Origin: Pseudobdellovibrionaceae bacterium
GTDB lineage: Bacteria; Bdellovibrionota; Bdellovibrionia; Bdellovibrionales; Bdellovibrionaceae
DNA: 26,474 nucleotides
Reading direction: 5' to 3'
Assembly: GCA_044359815.1 (NCBI GenBank)
Contig: JBIKLL010000032.1
Span: 1-26,474 of the forward strand
Both the position numbers and the translations under genes were made by a program. The notes under the pieces were generated by a model that made no database searches, was not told the DNA's origin, and saw nothing but the letters and a program-made list of their open reading frames with translations. Of the stretch, positions 2,761-24,172 are shown piece after piece (positions within the stretch are counted from its first letter, which is position 1; every line of letters starts with the position of its first letter).

Positions 2761-2797
2761 CTTGACCAATCAGATTGGTGAATTTAATCTCCTGAAA

Positions 2798-3187
2798 ATG
2801 GGAATTCAAAAAACATTAAGCCATCATTTTAAGGTAACGACGGAAGTCACTTACAGGCCGTCAGAATCACAGCCCGAGGCTGGATATTATTTTTTTAGTT
2901 ACAAGATCAGGATTGAAAACAAAGGTTCTTTGCCTGCGCAGTTAATGAGTCGTCATTGGGTAATCACAGACGGCTATGGACAGACTGAAGAAGTTCGCGG
3001 AGCTGGAGTGGTTGGCCTGCAGCCCAAGATTAATCCGGGTAAATGTTTTGAATACGAAAGCGCATGTCCGTTAAACACTCAAAGCGGCAGCATGAAGGGT
3101 TTTTATCAGATGGTATCTGACGACGGCTCAACCTTTGAAATCGAAATCCCCGAATTTTATCTGATCGCCCCCACTGCGCTTCATTAG
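2798..3187 (+). CDS. apaG: ApaG protein
   Basis: Motifs YFFSYKIRIEN, QLMSRHWVITD, VRGAGVVG, GSMKGFY. ATG at 2798 preferred; the ORF extends to TTG 2762. Confidence 0.93.
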   Translation: MGIQKTLSHHFKVTTEVTYRPSESQPEAGYYFFSYKIRIENKGSLPAQLMSRHWVITDGYGQTEEVRGAGVVGLQPKINPGKCFEYESACPLNTQSGSMKGFYQMVSDDGSTFEIEIPEFYLIAPTALH

Positions 3188-3387
3188 AATTTTTAAGCGT
3201 CAACAGTCACAGTGAGACTTTTTCTGTCTACGGTGCGAAATGCAGGTATCCCAATTAGTTTAATTCAAATGATGTGTGACCCTAGTTCCTGAGAGGTCCA
3301 AGGTTTGAAAAAAATTTCTCACAGATTAGATTTTTATAAAGGATTTTTTTCAGATTTTCACAAAGCGGTATTTTCCCGAGGCACCTT

Positions 3388-3418
3388 CAATGCGCTGTCT
3401 CTATCCCGGGGAAAGTGA
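3388..3418 (+). repeat. 31-bp HNH-associated repeat, copy 1
   Basis: CAATGCGCTGTCTCTATCCCGGGGAAAGTGA; 30/31 identical to the copies at 3608 and 4965. Confidence 0.95.
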
Positions 3419-3607
3419 TTTGTTTGTTTAATTGGGAAAATGTTTTTTTACCATTACCTGAGATAAATAGTGATCATTGATTTTATTTTATTTTATTTGC
3501 TGAAGGGTATTTGTTACCCCAATAAAATTGAGTCTGAAATTTCAGTGAACGGATTTTTTGTTTTAGATGATTCTAATGTTTGATTGATACCGGTGCGTAC
3601 CTGACTC

Positions 3608-3638
3608 CAACGCGCTGTCTCTATCCCGGGGAAAGTGA
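3608..3638 (+). repeat. 31-bp HNH-associated repeat, copy 2
   Basis: CAACGCGCTGTCTCTATCCCGGGGAAAGTGA; starts exactly 220 bp after copy 1 and is identical to the intragenic copy. Confidence 0.95.
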
Positions 3639-4076
3639 TTTTTCATGATTATTAATCAAGGAAAAATTAACCTTAAAAATTCAATGAATGTTTGAGCTTT
3701 TAATTATTTAAAATATTTTCTTAGAATGTTCAAAACCCAACTGACCAATATCTAAATTCAAAATTCAAAGGTCTTAGAATTACAAAATTAATTTCTATTA
3801 GAATAAAACCAAAAATCAACGCCACGCCATTTTCTGAAGAAATAAAAAAAATATTTTTCTTGACCGCGGTTTTTCAAAAACATCCCAAGAAAATGCTGGC
3901 AAAACAAATCCTTTCTAATCGCCATTTAAAGCTCGGCATTTGCCCTCTATCAAAATTAATTTAGCAAAATAAATCCCCTGTGATTCGGCAAAATAAAACC
4001 CAGCAAACAAGATTCTAAGGCTGAAAAATCCATCTGAAAATCCATGGTAAGTTGCATTTTATCAAAAGGAGCAAGC

Positions 4077-5252
4077 ATGCAAACAAACTTTGAAATTAGC
4101 AGAGGCATTGAATTAGAAACAAGAACGCAGAATCCTATGCAAGATGATTTGCAGTCAGGAATGAAGATAAAAATGGAGATGAGATCGCAAAGCAAATTAG
4201 AATCTGGAAAAAGGTACGAAGTTGTGCAATTGAAAGAAAAAAGTAATCAAACGTCTGAGTTTAAATCAATACCAAAAGCCAAGCAGTCCGTCGAAATCAG
4301 AAAGCTAGATGATAAAACCCTCGATCAGCAGACCAAAAATCTGGTGGGACAAGAGCGCGAATTGACCGTACAGATTTTGCACTACTTGCAAGAAATCAAT
4401 CGCAGAAGGTATTTTGCCAAGCGGGGATATCCATCATTGTTTGAGTACGCCGTCAAAGAGCTGAAATATTCAGAATCACAGGCTCACCGCAGGATTGCGG
4501 CAATGCGGTTAGTAAACGACATTCCTGAGGTGGAAGAAAAACTGTCCAATGGTCATTTGACCTTGGCGACAGTGGCGCAGGCACAAACATTTTTTCGTCA
4601 AGAATCTAAAGCCACTGGTATCGCCAGAAACAACGATCAAAAGCGGGATCTTTTGAAAAAGCTTGAGGGTAAATCCAAGCGAACCGTAGAAAAAACATTA
4701 ATTGAACTGTGTCCAAAACTGGTTCAATCCAGGGAAACATTAAAGCCGATCGCAACAGAATTTTACGAGCTAAAAATCACAATGACCCAGTCGCAGCAGC
4801 AAAAGTTAGAAAGGCTGAAGGAGCTGAAAAACACCCAAAGCACAGCCGAAATAATAGATTGGATGATGGATTTGGCACTGACAAAAGTTGATCCGTTAAA
4901 AAAACCTAAAGTAGGTTATAGCAAGGCCAAACGTTCAAACTCTGAAACGCAGAAAAAATCTGCGCAACGCGCTGTCTCTATCCCGGGGAAAGTGAACCGA
5001 TACATCCCCAGGGATTTCAAACAGAATCTTTGGATCAGGTCAGGTGGGCAGTGTGAGTTTGTTGATCATCTGACAGAGCGACGGTGCGAATGCAGAATGC
5101 ATTTGCAGATTGATCATATTCAGCCAATTGGCTTGGGTGGAAAAACGGCCCAAGAAAACCTGCGACTAGTTTGTCGCAGCCACAATCAGCTATTTGCAAT
5201 TCAGTCTTTCGGAAGCCAGCAGATGGCAAAATTTTTACCTGATTTGAGATAG
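4077..5252 (+). CDS. HNH endonuclease with N-terminal helical domain
   Basis: C-terminal HNH/Zn motifs C-EF..RC..LQIDHIQPIGLGG..ENLRLVCRSHN. N-terminal helical block ERELTVQILHYLQEINRRRYF..GYPSLFEYAVKELKYSESQAHRRIAAMRL. AAGGAG RBS precedes ATG 4077; the ORF extends to 4044. Confidence 0.88.
   Translation: MQTNFEISRGIELETRTQNPMQDDLQSGMKIKMEMRSQSKLESGKRYEVVQLKEKSNQTSEFKSIPKAKQSVEIRKLDDKTLDQQTKNLVGQERELTVQILHYLQEINRRRYFAKRGYPSLFEYAVKELKYSESQAHRRIAAMRLVNDIPEVEEKLSNGHLTLATVAQAQTFFRQESKATGIARNNDQKRDLLKKLEGKSKRTVEKTLIELCPKLVQSRETLKPIATEFYELKITMTQSQQQKLERLKELKNTQSTAEIIDWMMDLALTKVDPLKKPKVGYSKAKRSNSETQKKSAQRAVSIPGKVNRYIPRDFKQNLWIRSGGQCEFVDHLTERRCECRMHLQIDHIQPIGLGGKTAQENLRLVCRSHNQLFAIQSFGSQQMAKFLPDLR
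4965..4995 (+). repeat. 31-bp HNH-associated repeat, copy 3 (intragenic, encodes QRAVSIPGKV)
   Basis: CAACGCGCTGTCTCTATCCCGGGGAAAGTGA in frame, immediately before NRYIP and the HNH domain. Confidence 0.95.
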
Positions 5253-5283
5253 ATCAACACTGGTGCTCACAATTACCAACACA

Positions 5284-5500
5284 GCTGCCCACTTGCCCGC
5301 GGTAATTTTAAACTTTAAAAAAATATTTCTGTGATTTCACATCTTCTGATGTATGTTTGCGAGCGCGCTAGTCATATATGGTGGTGATTTAAATGAATCA
5401 ATACTAGAGATGGTCTTGCGGCCGTTAGCAAGTATTCACAAGGTGTAACATCACAGAAATATTTTTTTAAATTCAAAATAACCTCAGATAACTGGGCAGC
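5284..5500. mobile_element. ~217-bp fold-back element with long imperfect terminal inverted repeats (MITE/REPIN-like)
   Basis: Ends are GCTGCCCA...TGGGCAGC. Perfect 22-bp IR TTTAAAAAAATATTTCTGTGAT at 5314-5335 and 5450-5471. A related copy lies at 1-188. No TSD seen; mobility is inferred. Confidence 0.65.
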
Positions 5501-5559
5501 GGCATTCACTTATCCAAATAATACTTTTTAACGGCAGGTCTGCTGCAGAGCCGACCCGA

Positions 5560-7383
5560 CTACGACGCTTTCAGAAGCCCCTTAGTCCATCGTTGGATGA
5601 TGGAGACTGGGGCGCGATCGAACTGAACTCCGTAAGCAGCGTTGGCCTGTGACCAAACAATGTGGCCTTGGACTTGGATTTCCTCTTGGCCTTCTGGACT
5701 GTGGATTTTGATCGTGACGATTCCACCTTTTTCCAGCATTTGTTCGGCATTGAATGACAGTCCACCAACCGAAATAGTTTTCATCTGACCCACAAGCTCT
5801 TGGCCGCCAGCCATCACTGTGATCGCAGAGTTCATTAAAAATCTTTCGTGCTTACGATTGTCTTTTGGTTTTTTGATTCTAGAGCGCAGGATTGTCCAAG
5901 CAAGAACTGGGACCAATGCAATTGCAAATACAATGGCAATCAGAGCATTGCTACCACCGGCTGCGCCGCCCGTTGCAGAAATTAATCTAACGGTTCCGCA
6001 ACCACCGCCACCAGAAACTTCTCCGTCTGGACCGCGGCCCGTAGCATTTGCAGCCACATAAGACGGTTGATAAGCAGCCGTGTTAGTTTCATTTTTCGCA
6101 GCCATGATCGCATCATAAACGTCGATTCGAGCGCTTGATGAAAGCTTGGTCGCCAAATTGGACTTAACTTCACCGGATCCAACCAACAAGGCTTTGATTT
6201 GATAACCTGTTAATTGCGGAGCCTCACGAAACATCATGGCAGCAATGCCGGCCACCAAAGGTGCTGCCATGCTGGTGCCGTTCATATATCGATAACTACT
6301 ATTTGGAATCGTTGAATAAATCGCAACTCCGGGTGAGCCAACGTGAACTGTTGAAACTCCGTAGTTTGAAAATGAAGCCAAATTGTCAAAATCATTTGAG
6401 GCCGCAATGCTCATTAATCCAGGCACAGGGTAAGTAGCTGGATAAAGAGGTTTTGAATCATTGTTGCTAGAATAATTGCCGGCAGCAGCAGTGACAAAAA
6501 CACCTTCGTTATAGGCGGCTGTGATCGCATCGTGCAGTGCTTGGCTGTAAGCTTCGCCACCCCAAGAATTATTAATCACTCGTGCGCCGTTGTTAACAGC
6601 ATAATTAATCGCCGCAATGGCTGATGATGTGGTCCCGCTGCCATCAGCACCAAGAAATTTTAAAGGCATGATTTTAACACGAGCTGCAGAAGTGTCTGTC
6701 AAAGCCTGGCTGATACCAAACACGATTCCAGCAACGTGGGTTCCATGATTATCGTCATCCATGGGGTCATTTGTATTGGCGTGGAAATTCCAGCCATTAA
6801 CGTCGTCTATATATCCATTGTGATCATCGTCAATTCCGTTGTTTGCGATTTCATCAGCGTTTGTCCATATTGCATTCGCAGCAGTAAAAACTGGGTGAGT
6901 GTAATCCACACCCGTATCAATAACAGCAACAACAATTGGATTTGGATTTTGTGACAATGGAATCATTTCATCCCAAGCCTCTTGCACATGAATATTGGCA
7001 TAAGTTTGGATGTAGCTGCCACTAGAGCTCATGGATTCCATATCTGACTGCGAATAAATTTGAGGATTGTCAGAAGCATCTATAGGTTTTGACAAATAAA
7101 AATTAGGTTCTGCAAATTCTACGTTAGGATCTTTTTTCAGTTCATCAATAAATGCCTGAACATCCCCTGATCCCTTCATTGCAATCTTTTGCATACCCAC
7201 CGAACTGTAAACACCACGAACCACAAAACTGCTAGAGATCTTTCCGCTGACTGCTAAAGAATTAGTTCCAGGCTTGTATTTAACAATGACTTCCCCGGGG
7301 ACATAATTTTGACCCCAGAGCGGTTGAACACCTATTATTAGACTCAAAACGGTGAGCCTGAACCATAACTTACGTGCCATCAT
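5560..7383 (-). CDS. S8 subtilisin-like serine protease with prodomain, TM helix and C-terminal PilZ domain
   Basis: Signal peptide; catalytic triad in VIDTG, HGTHVAG and GTSMAAP; GGGGCG followed by a hydrophobic helix; RKHER and ISVGG PilZ-like motifs. Start is probably MMARK (7383/7380); the ORF extends to 7440. Confidence 0.9.
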   Translation of the reverse strand: MMARKLWFRLTVLSLIIGVQPLWGQNYVPGEVIVKYKPGTNSLAVSGKISSSFVVRGVYSSVGMQKIAMKGSGDVQAFIDELKKDPNVEFAEPNFYLSKPIDASDNPQIYSQSDMESMSSSGSYIQTYANIHVQEAWDEMIPLSQNPNPIVVAVIDTGVDYTHPVFTAANAIWTNADEIANNGIDDDHNGYIDDVNGWNFHANTNDPMDDDNHGTHVAGIVFGISQALTDTSAARVKIMPLKFLGADGSGTTSSAIAAINYAVNNGARVINNSWGGEAYSQALHDAITAAYNEGVFVTAAAGNYSSNNDSKPLYPATYPVPGLMSIAASNDFDNLASFSNYGVSTVHVGSPGVAIYSTIPNSSYRYMNGTSMAAPLVAGIAAMMFREAPQLTGYQIKALLVGSGEVKSNLATKLSSSARIDVYDAIMAAKNETNTAAYQPSYVAANATGRGPDGEVSGGGGCGTVRLISATGGAAGGSNALIAIVFAIALVPVLAWTILRSRIKKPKDNRKHERFLMNSAITVMAGGQELVGQMKTISVGGLSFNAEQMLEKGGIVTIKIHSPEGQEEIQVQGHIVWSQANAAYGVQFDRAPVSIIQRWTKGLLKAS

Positions 7384-7482
7384 GTTAGATCTATCGGATC
7401 TAGGTCCAGTCCAGTTGAGCAAAAATCCGAAATTTCTCAAATTGATACAGGAAAAAATCTAGAATAATTGATGGAGATCAGG

Positions 7483-9500: not shown

Positions 9501-10136
9501 CTACAGCTTGTCATTTTCGAGATGATGACGTCTTGAATTTATTTTTGGAAGCTTATATTTTTGTTTGGATAGCGCAACTTTCATTGCTTCTGAATCTGAC
9601 TGGCATGGCATTGTATTGAGCCATTTTAAATTTTTTGTTAGATCTGCATCAAAAAGAATTCTGTCTGGCTCCAGTGGAATGATGAGCTTAGAAAAACCCA
9701 GCAGCCCACTTAAGGTTGAGTAGGGATATTTTTCAACGTGTTGGCATACGCCCGCTCTTAGTGGATTTTGATAGATATATTTGTAAGTATTGTGAAAGTA
9801 ATTTCCTGAAACTATCTCACAACTTTTGTACCTATGGGCCCACAGCTGATTAAGTCTTCCGGAATCTTTCGTGACTTGCAAACTTGTATTGGCCAGAAAA
9901 TCCCTCATAGCTAGACTGAGGTTTCCATTTGGAGCAGATGCAAGCAGGTGGAAATGATTTTGCATGAGCACAAAAGAGTGAATTTTAATTTCATGGGTTT
10001 TGTGTATTAAAAACAAATAGTCCTCCATGATATTCCAGACTTCCTCAAGAGGCATGGAAAACCAGTCTCTGTTAATACACCGATTGGTGATATGAATTGG
10101 GTATTGAAATGTAAAAGTTCTTTTCTTTTTTGCCAT
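9501..10136 (-). CDS. REP-associated tyrosine transposase (RAYT / Y1 HUH family)
   Basis: HITNRC, HUH motif FVLMQNHFHLL, YIYQNPLRAG and YPYST. Flanked by inverted 26-bp repeats. Confidence 0.9.
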   Translation of the reverse strand: MAKKKRTFTFQYPIHITNRCINRDWFSMPLEEVWNIMEDYLFLIHKTHEIKIHSFVLMQNHFHLLASAPNGNLSLAMRDFLANTSLQVTKDSGRLNQLWAHRYKSCEIVSGNYFHNTYKYIYQNPLRAGVCQHVEKYPYSTLSGLLGFSKLIIPLEPDRILFDADLTKNLKWLNTMPCQSDSEAMKVALSKQKYKLPKINSRRHHLENDKL

Positions 10137-13929: not shown

Positions 13930-13949
13930 CACTTTCCCCGGGGAAAGTG
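13930..13949. repeat. Perfect 20-bp palindrome related to the HNH-associated repeat
   Basis: CACTTTCCCCGGGGAAAGTG; shares CCCGGGGAAAGTG with the 31-bp repeat. Confidence 0.85.
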
Positions 13950-23372: not shown

Positions 23373-23984
23373 TTATGTTTGTACGACTACTTTTTGTAAA
23401 TTAACCGAGTACGCTCGTTTGGTTTTCAATCGATACAGAAACTGATTGAACGATTTCAGATATTCTGTGCGTGCCGCATAGCCAAGCTCGCGCTGCCGGT
23501 GATTGGCTTCAAAATAGGCCCGCAATCCGAGCTCCTCAAATTTGGTGGTGATAATCCTGGTAAAAGCCAACCCATCCCAAAATCTGCCAAAGGATTTTGA
23601 TCTGTGTGCCCCTGTAATTTTACGAGCCAAAATTGCGGCAAAAGTTCTTAAAAAATTCTGAAAATTCTGTCGGTTTTTAAATCGGACTTTCAGGTGTAAA
23701 TGGTTACCCATGTTTACCCATTGAATGATTTCAATAAAATATCTTTTTGATCTGTCTTTTAACAAAGCCGCCGTAAGATTTTTGTTTTTATAGAAGCTTA
23801 ATGATCCAACGGCTTTACTGGATTTTAAAACCACATGGTGAATGGCTCCAGGTATCAGAGGGCGAGCTATTTTTCTGCGGTTTTTTAATTTGCTACCACC
23901 AAAGCTCATGGCCTTTACAAAGCGTAAATCCTGCTTTGGAACAAATGATAACTGCTGGTCATTTTTAGAATTTATTGAACTCAT
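23373..23984 (-). CDS. Y1 HUH transposase-like protein (IS200/RAYT superfamily)
   Basis: HHVVLKS, HUH motif NMGNHLHLKV, FWDGLAFTRI, candidate catalytic Tyr in LRAYFEANH. ATG 23984 preferred; the ORF extends to 24056. Confidence 0.8.
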   Translation of the reverse strand: MSSINSKNDQQLSFVPKQDLRFVKAMSFGGSKLKNRRKIARPLIPGAIHHVVLKSSKAVGSLSFYKNKNLTAALLKDRSKRYFIEIIQWVNMGNHLHLKVRFKNRQNFQNFLRTFAAILARKITGAHRSKSFGRFWDGLAFTRIITTKFEELGLRAYFEANHRQRELGYAARTEYLKSFNQFLYRLKTKRAYSVNLQKVVVQT

Positions 23985-24172
23985 GTGGGGCAATATATTT
24001 AAATAGTTTAAAAAACGCAAAAGTCTTTGAATTGATTGAAAAAAATCTAAAGCCATCAGGGTCTTAAGACACAGAAAAACAATGAAAAGGAGGAAGCAGG
24101 AAAACAGCTCGAAAAATTGAAAGTGGAAAATGGATGATGTTCAACCGGTTAATGAAATAGGAAAATGATAAA

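Follow-up and report, generated by a model that had tools for sequence, protein, structure and literature searches.

A paralogue-specific dyad repeat upstream of and within a DUF222-HNH gene of a Pseudobdellovibrionaceae bacterium: candidate cis-site of a selfish element

The stretch of DNA analysed here, which we call the window, is a contig of 26,474 nucleotides from a Pseudobdellovibrionaceae bacterium (assembly GCA_044359815.1, contig JBIKLL010000032.1), listed as contig C8 among the 125 contigs of this 2.95-Mb genome (G000). It contains a gene encoding a DUF222-HNH protein (4077..5252, plus strand) and a 31-bp dyad repeat, R, which occurs twice upstream of the gene and once inside its reading frame. 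We found that all assessable paralogues of this gene in the genome possess a repeat of their own, placed ahead of the HNH domain and present again outside the gene. Our preferred explanation, to which we give somewhat less than an even chance, is that R serves as the cognate cis-site of a compact (about 1.5-1.9 kb) selfish element and is bound by the element's own dimeric DUF222-HNH protein for the recognition of its ends.

The 31-bp repeat is real. An exact search with CAAYGCGCTGTCTCTATCCCGGGGAAAGTGA returned exactly three matches in the window, all on the plus strand and with 0 mismatches, while 100 dinucleotide shuffles gave a mean of 0.00 matches and none of them reached three. The outermost upstream copy, R1, occupies 3388..3418. 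R2 (3608..3638) follows 220 bp past R1 and 438 bp ahead of the start codon, and R3 (4965..4995) lies in the coding stretch of the linker (residues 297-307), 257 nt before the end of the stop codon. Since conservation in related elements begins with their outermost repeat, R1 is proposed by analogy as the left edge of the element in the window. The surroundings of R1 and R2 are similar over 37 bp (3385-3421 and 3605-3641, 94.6%), and the identity shared with R3 covers 31 bp, ending at both edges. Both upstream copies are located in a gap of 889 bp after apaG (2762-3187), at 3188-4076, which has 33% G+C against 41.6% for the whole window. R3 encodes QRAVSIPGKV directly before NRYIP and the HNH domain, in a stretch predicted to be disordered (residues 266-307), and its core, TCTCTATCCC-G-GGGAAAGTGA, forms a dyad in which 8 of 10 positions pair (8/11 in a second count). 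A first-pass annotation, made from the letters of this DNA alone, had described three copies in the same orientation starting at 3388, 3608 and 4965, an AT-rich upstream gap of about 890 bp, an intragenic copy in the linker just before the HNH domain, an imperfectly palindromic core and an abrupt end of identity at the repeat edges, and our measurements agree with this description throughout.

As single strands, R1 and R2 fold with only -1.2 to -2.2 kcal/mol (z +0.65 and +1.20), which is no better than shuffled sequences, and the best fold of R3 does not use the dyad. A hairpin this weak fits a binding site on duplex DNA. This bears on the earlier suggestion that the repeats demarcate an RNA used by the nuclease and, more generally, on the possibility that R acts as RNA, either as a hairpin controlling translation or stability or as the boundary of a guide RNA. 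In its favour, the likely transcript includes the sites or runs close to them, other HNH nucleases such as IscB and Cas9 use gene-adjacent RNAs, and upstream copies in a sister genus, being inverted, could form pairs with the intragenic copy, provided that both are transcribed. Against this stand the weakness of the hairpin, the lack of any Rfam match in 2800-5800 at an E-value of 1 and the consensus fold of six sister-genus 5' regions, which contains 8 pairs and no compensatory change. R2 also lies upstream of the promoter-like TTGACG conserved in those regions and, since the copies in the window are in direct orientation, pairing between a 5' copy and the internal copy is impossible here. 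With the orientation differing between genera as well, a guide RNA or hairpin function is unsupported, and we regard it as highly improbable. The AT-rich region between R2 and the start codon (3639..4076, plus strand) belongs to no known RNA family and has a ribosome-binding site, AAGGAG, before the ATG at 4077; a promoter and terminator scan gave 13 promoter-like sites where 5.7 were expected, none of them clearly placed.

Using tblastn, we found about ten paralogues in the genome, which fall into subfamilies that each have their own linker palindrome. Subfamily A (contigs C8, C19 and C48) has the linker core ...TCCCGGGGAAAGTGA, subfamily B (C107, C35, C34 and C17) a 42-nt unit ending in CTCCGGCGCCGGAGT, subfamily C (C120 and C50) the linker core ACTGCCACGGTGGCAGT and a relative of it, and subfamily D (C28) the linker core ACCGCAGCGGT. 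The genes on C34 and C17 are cut by contig ends; all eight assessable paralogues have their own palindrome in the linker before the HNH domain together with same-strand copies outside the gene. Two upstream copies are present at C8, C120, C107 and C35, where the pair of C35 is found on contig C122, linked to C35 via a shared 8-bp tandem repeat. C50 has one upstream copy, which is degenerate, and C19 and C48 have one each, degenerate yet dyads themselves, while C28 has a single copy past its stop codon. A terminal pair on C101 and a terminal copy on C35 probably belong to the truncated genes on C34 and C17. Upstream pairs with a spacing of 70-315 bp recur at other paralogues, and the layout with two upstream copies is also present in the sister genus. 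It had been proposed to look for palindromes that are specific to each paralogue and recur next to its gene, and this is what the homologues carry.

The 15-nt core of subfamily A occurs 18 times in the genome, counting both strands and allowing one mismatch, which is so rare that the copies within 1.4 kb upstream of C19 and upstream of C48 are not due to chance. Full B units with their 5' handle were found only at HNH loci or on adjoining contig ends, and a few bare palindromes follow unrelated genes.

The proteins encoded on C8, C48 and C19 are 60-72% identical, and first, second and third codon positions of the three genes are invariant at 0.66, 0.81 and 0.31, a pattern indicating that the protein is under purifying selection. 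Under the repeat, third positions are invariant in 10 of 11 codons against 31% gene-wide, which ranks first of 281 windows, and the linker outside the repeat does not align among the paralogues. Together, the third-position invariance and the unalignable remainder of the linker argue that the repeat is conserved as DNA and not as peptide. On these sequence comparisons, we consider it settled that the repeat is specific to each paralogue and under nucleotide-level constraint within the gene. Between paralogues, the dyads agree in an outer half-site edge (...AGTG/AGTA) and differ in their interior, which would fit one fold with varied specificity. The partnership between nuclease and repeat suggested by the first-pass annotation thus gains backing from palindromes that are paralogue-specific and gene-adjacent.

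The same annotation had named a genome-wide repetitive extragenic palindromic (REP) sequence of another transposase, inserted into the gene by chance, as a possible origin of the repeat. Where this could be tested cleanly, it failed, as the repeat motif is confined to HNH loci. In complete genomes of the sister genus, the motif CACTGCCAAATGGAAGT, with at most one mismatch, was found only in HNH loci. In G141, all 9 copies are located in three HNH loci, each with two upstream copies and one intragenic copy, and in G085 all 5 copies are located in two HNH loci; G081 and G089, which lack HNH loci, contain no copy at this threshold. A variant of CACTGCCAAATGGAAGT with swapped arms lies a further 300 nt downstream in genes of G085 and G121. 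That R is a REP or REPIN repeat spread by a RAYT-like transposase of the genome, landing in the linker by chance, could appeal to the nine Y1_Tnp matches in the genome, to family B- and C-like palindrome cores that also occur singly after unrelated genes, and to the A-type copy on C67, which falls in the 3' end of an unrelated gene. Two of the nine are in the window (9501-10136 and 23373-24056, both on the minus strand) and match the NCBIfam model REP_Tyr_transpos with 72.5 and 22 bits, both below the cut-off of 80 bits. No perfect palindrome of families A-D lies within 300 nt of any of the nine RAYT-like genes, full units of handle and dyad are almost confined to HNH loci, and the sister-genus motif is limited to such loci and missing from genomes without them. 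Independent chance landings at one linker position in many subfamilies are implausible, too. A RAYT/REP origin is therefore unsupported and, in our estimate, has very little probability.

With a profile built from the eight paralogues, 71 of the 121 genomes searched in the order and 99 of 201 in the phylum proved to contain the family, many genomes having 10-20 matches. Its distribution is patchy even inside one genus, where 9 of 13 species carry it and four complete genomes do not. In being multicopy and patchy, the family behaves like a selfish element. A tblastn search against plasmids gave no match.

We then compared each open reading frame (ORF) with its own upstream DNA on both strands, using mismatched flanks as controls. 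A pair of intragenic and upstream sequences matching at 16 of 18 positions was present at 10 of 25 loci and in 8 of 150 mismatched controls (nominal Fisher p 1.2e-5; 4 of 29 loci excluded by the ORF filter), and a pair matching at 15 of 16 positions at 15 of 34 loci and in 5 of 170 controls (nominal Fisher p 9e-10; 12 of 46 loci excluded). The intragenic copy lies 220-460 nt before the stop codon in 12 of these 15 paired loci. With 4-kb flanks, 10 of 20 loci of the sister genus were paired, and in 9 of the 10 the intragenic copy is located 247-472 nt before the stop codon. The best perfect palindrome per sister-genus ORF was uninformative as a test.

Comparisons between species further show that the stretch between R1 and the stop codon is either there or missing as a whole, and we take it as settled by sequence that the repeat is part of a gene-sized mobile unit. 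At a first site, an element of about 1.56 kb (L065) is present in G141 and missing in four species: the convergent flanking genes are 1565 bp apart in G141, 27 bp in G085 and 4 bp in G125, G089 and G081. The insert begins at R1, about 18 nt past the stop codon of the left gene, and finishes about 18 nt past the HNH stop codon. A second site is filled in G085 by a 2.7-kb insert (L076) with one extra gene past the stop codon and in G141 by a 1.44-kb insert with a broken HNH ORF (L091), and is empty in G089, G125 and G081, with a gap of 146-237 bp. In L091 (G141:1545198-1547240), the open frame spans only 860-1375, and two upstream repeats and one internal repeat are retained.

Of the three filled sites, two have R1 within about 20-70 nt of the left flank, and at L076 of G085 detectable flank homology stops about 270 nt before R1. 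The stop codon is about 20-35 nt from the right flank in two filled sites, and the third has the extra gene past the stop. Within family B, homology runs from R1 to about 20 nt past the stop codon. The pair L064 and L065 in G141 is homologous from R2 to the stop codon, both copies having an R1 and differing in the spacer between R1 and R2. On the model of these related elements, the whole mobile unit in the window is proposed to extend over about 1.9 kb on the plus strand (3388..5270, the right limit being approximate). The DNA of 40 relatives gave no empty allele of the window locus; the matches came solely from other genera, at 65-70% identity, which accounts for the missing empty site. Locus L069 gave no empty allele either, as its two flanks are far apart in HNH-free species. 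The sequencing runs listed as containing this DNA are lake-water metagenomes, with no RNA run among them; in four lake-water runs, where contigs break at repeats, we saw no joint, deletion or empty site. At 19 of 25 loci, the right-hand neighbour is directed towards the HNH gene, often within 12-110 nt, as counted by a rough ORF rule with a minimum of 150 amino acids, which missed apaG for C8.

The encoded protein of 391 amino acids is predicted to consist of a disordered N-terminus (residues 1-70), a helical DUF222 domain (residues 70-211; 4284..4709, plus strand), a disordered linker (residues 266-307) and an HNH nuclease domain (residues 310-385; 5004..5231, plus strand). Pfam DUF222 (PF02720) matched residues 100-217 with 26.3 bits, a narrow margin over the curated cut-off of 24.4, and Pfam HNH (PF01844) matched residues 348-379 with 25.1 bits against a cut-off of 21.4. 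At an E-value of 0.01, Pfam gave nothing beyond these two domains, and in particular no ParB N-terminal (ParB/Srx, CTP-binding) domain; the PADLOC models for anti-phage defence gave 0 matching families at the same threshold, and NCBIfam has no family for this protein. The residues C326, C337, D346, H347, N361, C366, H369 and N370, which comprise the catalytic and metal-binding residues of the HNH domain, are unchanged in all eight paralogues. The nuclease domain is supported by Pfam, the model and VIA-align, which aligned it to HNH structures with Z 5-6.9, the GVE2 HNH structure 5h0o_A reaching 6.9.

The AlphaFold model has a mean predicted local distance difference test score (pLDDT) of 64.8, with values of about 90 across residues 80-210. 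VIA-align matched residues 91-218 to ParB (6s6h_B, Z 6.8), KorB (8qa8_A, Z 6.6, and 1r71_A, Z 6.1), Spo0J (1vz0_A, Z 5.6), SopB (3mkw_B, Z 5.0) and VirB (3vwb_A, Z 4.9), so that 6 of the top 22 rows are ParB-family structures, with root-mean-square deviations of 3.0-7.8 and Z values below 8 that may reflect a common helical arrangement. A Foldseek search of the PDB at an E-value of 0.001 returned nothing. In the model, the helical domain weakly resembles the DNA-binding domains of ParB and KorB, which is a lead and not a proof, and we propose it as a dimeric DNA-binding domain. Homodimer prediction for residues 70-270 gave a score of 0.82 against 0.02 for the best of three controls, with a contact agreement of at least 97% between runs and a partner pLDDT of at least 89. 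Of 30 proteins solved as one-chain pairs, 20 passed the benchmark mark, as did 1 of the 23 with single-chain structures; since dimers of the ParB type have already been solved, the pass may reflect likeness to them.

Taken together, these features suggest how the element may work. Its single gene would combine a dimeric helix-turn-helix domain of the ParB/KorB type (DUF222), a long disordered linker and an HNH nuclease, and R would be carried at the left edge, usually twice, and once more within the reading frame. Protein dimers would bind R on double-stranded DNA and, by occupying upstream and internal sites, would link the element's left edge to its interior. The HNH domain tethered to them could then cut or nick nearby DNA, which would start the spread of the element, and the same binding probably also limits expression of the gene. 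As the element ends at the stop codon, R would sit in the linker because this is the only tolerant place for a dyad of 20-30 bp near the right end. In short, we infer that the element's own protein binds R, that this binding serves end recognition, and that the HNH domain drives movement.

A dimer bound at dyad sites would also suit an operator. The repeats could be purely autoregulatory, the protein repressing its gene at a distance or by looping, with its real target elsewhere, for example in empty alleles, and its spread resulting from homing or chance recombination. In six sister-genus elements, an invariant TTGACG, the likely promoter, lies about 125 nt after R2, so the upstream sites precede it, and KorB, to which the fold bears a weak likeness, is a repressor acting via palindromic operators. 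Autoregulation would also agree with a right end of the unit that has no recognisable site, with a site orientation that is not conserved, and with G141, where no derivatives without the gene were seen. An operator need not fall on the left boundary of the inserted unit, however, where the outermost repeat lies at two of the three filled sites and in the family B comparison, and 10-20 copies at unrelated sites per genome call for a means of insertion that this model does not supply. We consider pure autoregulation rather unlikely. On account of this position of the outermost repeat, we tentatively favour end recognition for movement over long-range autoregulation.

Alternatively, the copies outside the gene might be scars, left by repeated replacement or nested insertion of paralogues, and the repeat might have no function of its own. 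The post-stop copy at C28 does extend into a gene-like remnant (NPSKPPTSTAAVSPC compared with NPKPHTSTAAVSQC), the B-family genes and C19 have tandem leftovers of the last 25-60 nt of the gene downstream, and one chromosomal site holds divergent genes in two species. In general, however, 3'-end leftovers are found downstream at only 6 of 54 loci, compared with 1 of 54 for a mid-gene control. Identity ends abruptly at both edges of R, and the upstream copies are 88-95% alike inside spacers that are only about 70-78% alike. Moreover, the layout with two upstream copies recurs across subfamilies and genera with unrelated sequences, and third positions within the gene are strongly conserved. Scars explain local oddities such as the C28 remnant and the 3' leftovers and not the conserved layout, and we rank them low, as an improbable account of R.

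Several observations weigh against end recognition by a selfish element as well. Four A-type copies lie away from any HNH gene, three on C30 (18223, 19530 and 21397) and one on C67 (15358-15384). In other genomes, the pair is missing at about half of the loci at the thresholds used, and the Fisher p values overstate the case, as related genomes do not count as independent samples; each species is represented in the collection by a single genome. The upstream copies are in direct orientation to the intragenic copy here and inverted in the sister genus. The right ends of the elements have no common sequence, no target-site duplication was readable at a flank identity of 70-87%, and the internal site, being 200-470 nt short of the right end, cannot be what marks the point of cutting. 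The structural match is of middling strength (Z below 8), within a model that is moderately confident as a whole (mean pLDDT 64.8).

The closest known relatives appear to be the actinobacterial REP13E12 proteins with DUF222 and HNH domains (PF02720 with PF01844), which have the same two-domain layout, occur in many copies per genome and are treated as repeated, possibly mobile elements. In contrast to these, the protein described here matches DUF222 weakly (26.3 against 24.4 bits), and its host belongs to a different phylum. REP13E12/HNH/DUF222 is listed among repetitive elements in PMC10589994, where REP13E12 repeats are cited as catalogued since 1999. The literature found in our searches, seen mostly at the level of abstracts, contained no cognate palindromes, internal site or mechanism for the DUF222-HNH family.

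Free-standing homing endonuclease genes provide a second point of comparison. Like them, members of the family are single nuclease genes between host genes, present or absent at a given site in relatives, as seen at two sites, and like I-TevI the protein combines a DNA-binding part, a long linker and a nuclease and may bind near its own promoter. Free-standing homing endonuclease genes occur in phages, and I-TevI acts as its own repressor. The elements differ from homing endonuclease genes in having 10-20 copies at unrelated sites per genome and in carrying their sites, which are not destroyed by the element.

In some insertion sequences, the transposase reading frame runs into the terminal repeat. 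The elements are similarly compact, with one recognition site inside the coding sequence and several sub-terminal sites, those on the left being inverted in the sister genus. Unlike insertion sequences, they encode no enzyme of the DDE, HUH, serine or tyrosine type, their right end lacks a terminal inverted repeat, and we saw no duplication of the target at a flank identity of 70-87%. They might represent a new class of DNA transposon, in which an HNH nuclease is fused to a ParB-like site-reader, movement involves no DDE, HUH, serine or tyrosine chemistry, and the sub-terminal dyads include one in the element's own linker, with REP13E12 as distant members. We hold this to be unlikely at present.

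With the ParB-parS and KorB-operator systems, the protein has in common a weakly similar, predicted DNA-binding fold, a predicted dimer and several palindromic sites. In Bacillus subtilis, a parS site is located inside the parB gene (spo0J) itself. Unlike ParB and KorB, the protein lacks the ParB N-terminal domain (Pfam, E-value 0.01), is fused to HNH and has sites that are specific to each paralogue. The pairing of a protein family with its own family of short palindromic repeats is analogous, and only analogous, to RAYT-REP/REPIN systems, which have another enzyme class; the repeats described here are not dispersed in hundreds, do not form stable hairpins and are not beside RAYT-like genes. 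An HNH protein with an upstream non-coding region is also found in IscB with its omega RNA (HEARO). In contrast to IscB, there is no RuvC or PLMP domain here, no Rfam match and no conserved RNA structure.

Genes of the DUF222-HNH type are common and multicopy; half of the 201 sampled genomes of the phylum contain them. Cognate repeats give a first handle on the working of this widespread and unexplained gene family. With cis-sites, a predicted dimer that reads them and unit boundaries at the level of nucleotides, the repeated HNH gene becomes a testable system, and the question whether an HNH nuclease alone can move a gene can be asked directly. Moreover, the family would supply natural, paralogue-specific pairs of DNA-binding domain and site.

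Some further features were noted around the repeats. The A-type copy on C67 is translated as the C-terminal tail of an unrelated protein, and those on C30 follow tandemly duplicated ORFs of 161 amino acids and an ORF of 401 amino acids. A perfect palindrome in the window, CACTTTCCCCGGGGAAAGTG (13930-13949), has its right half in common with R; its relatives comprise three flank-conserved copies on C88 and bare copies on C68 and C99. The tandem leftovers of the last 25-60 nt are found just past the stop codons on C35 (L012), C107 (L014), C34 (L013), C17 (L016) and C19 (L009), with up to five in a row at a spacing of about 77 nt on C35. A different palindrome, ACCGCGACGGT, directly abuts a copy of the final codons on C107 and C35. 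Microsatellites of the types (AATAATCG)n, (AAATAACT)n, (TAGA)n and (CATTTGTT)n adjoin repeat sites or the gene end, namely past the stop codon on C50, at the C122/C35 junction after the second upstream repeat, and in L076 at 4990-5050 and about 3680-3740; they may be traces of recurrent breakage and repair. In the sister genus, the interval between R1 and R2 (columns about 225-275 of the alignment) contains a strong hairpin in two versions, CCTGACGAGCA...TGCTCGTCAGG and CCTGGCCACGA.GGCCAGG, which occur in different elements.

Directly after the HNH gene, the window contains a sequence of about 220 bp (5284-5500) that resembles a miniature inverted-repeat transposable element and has internal inverted repeats. 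A BLAST search placed 229 segments of it on 61 contigs, with 66 lying no more than 300 nt from a contig end, and the metagenome depth at this element jumps 30-60 fold. It may be the partner of the RAYT-like genes of the genome. Further along, the minus-strand gene at 5560-7440 encodes a subtilase with a fervidolysin-like prodomain and a C-terminal PilZ domain, which is an unusual fusion.

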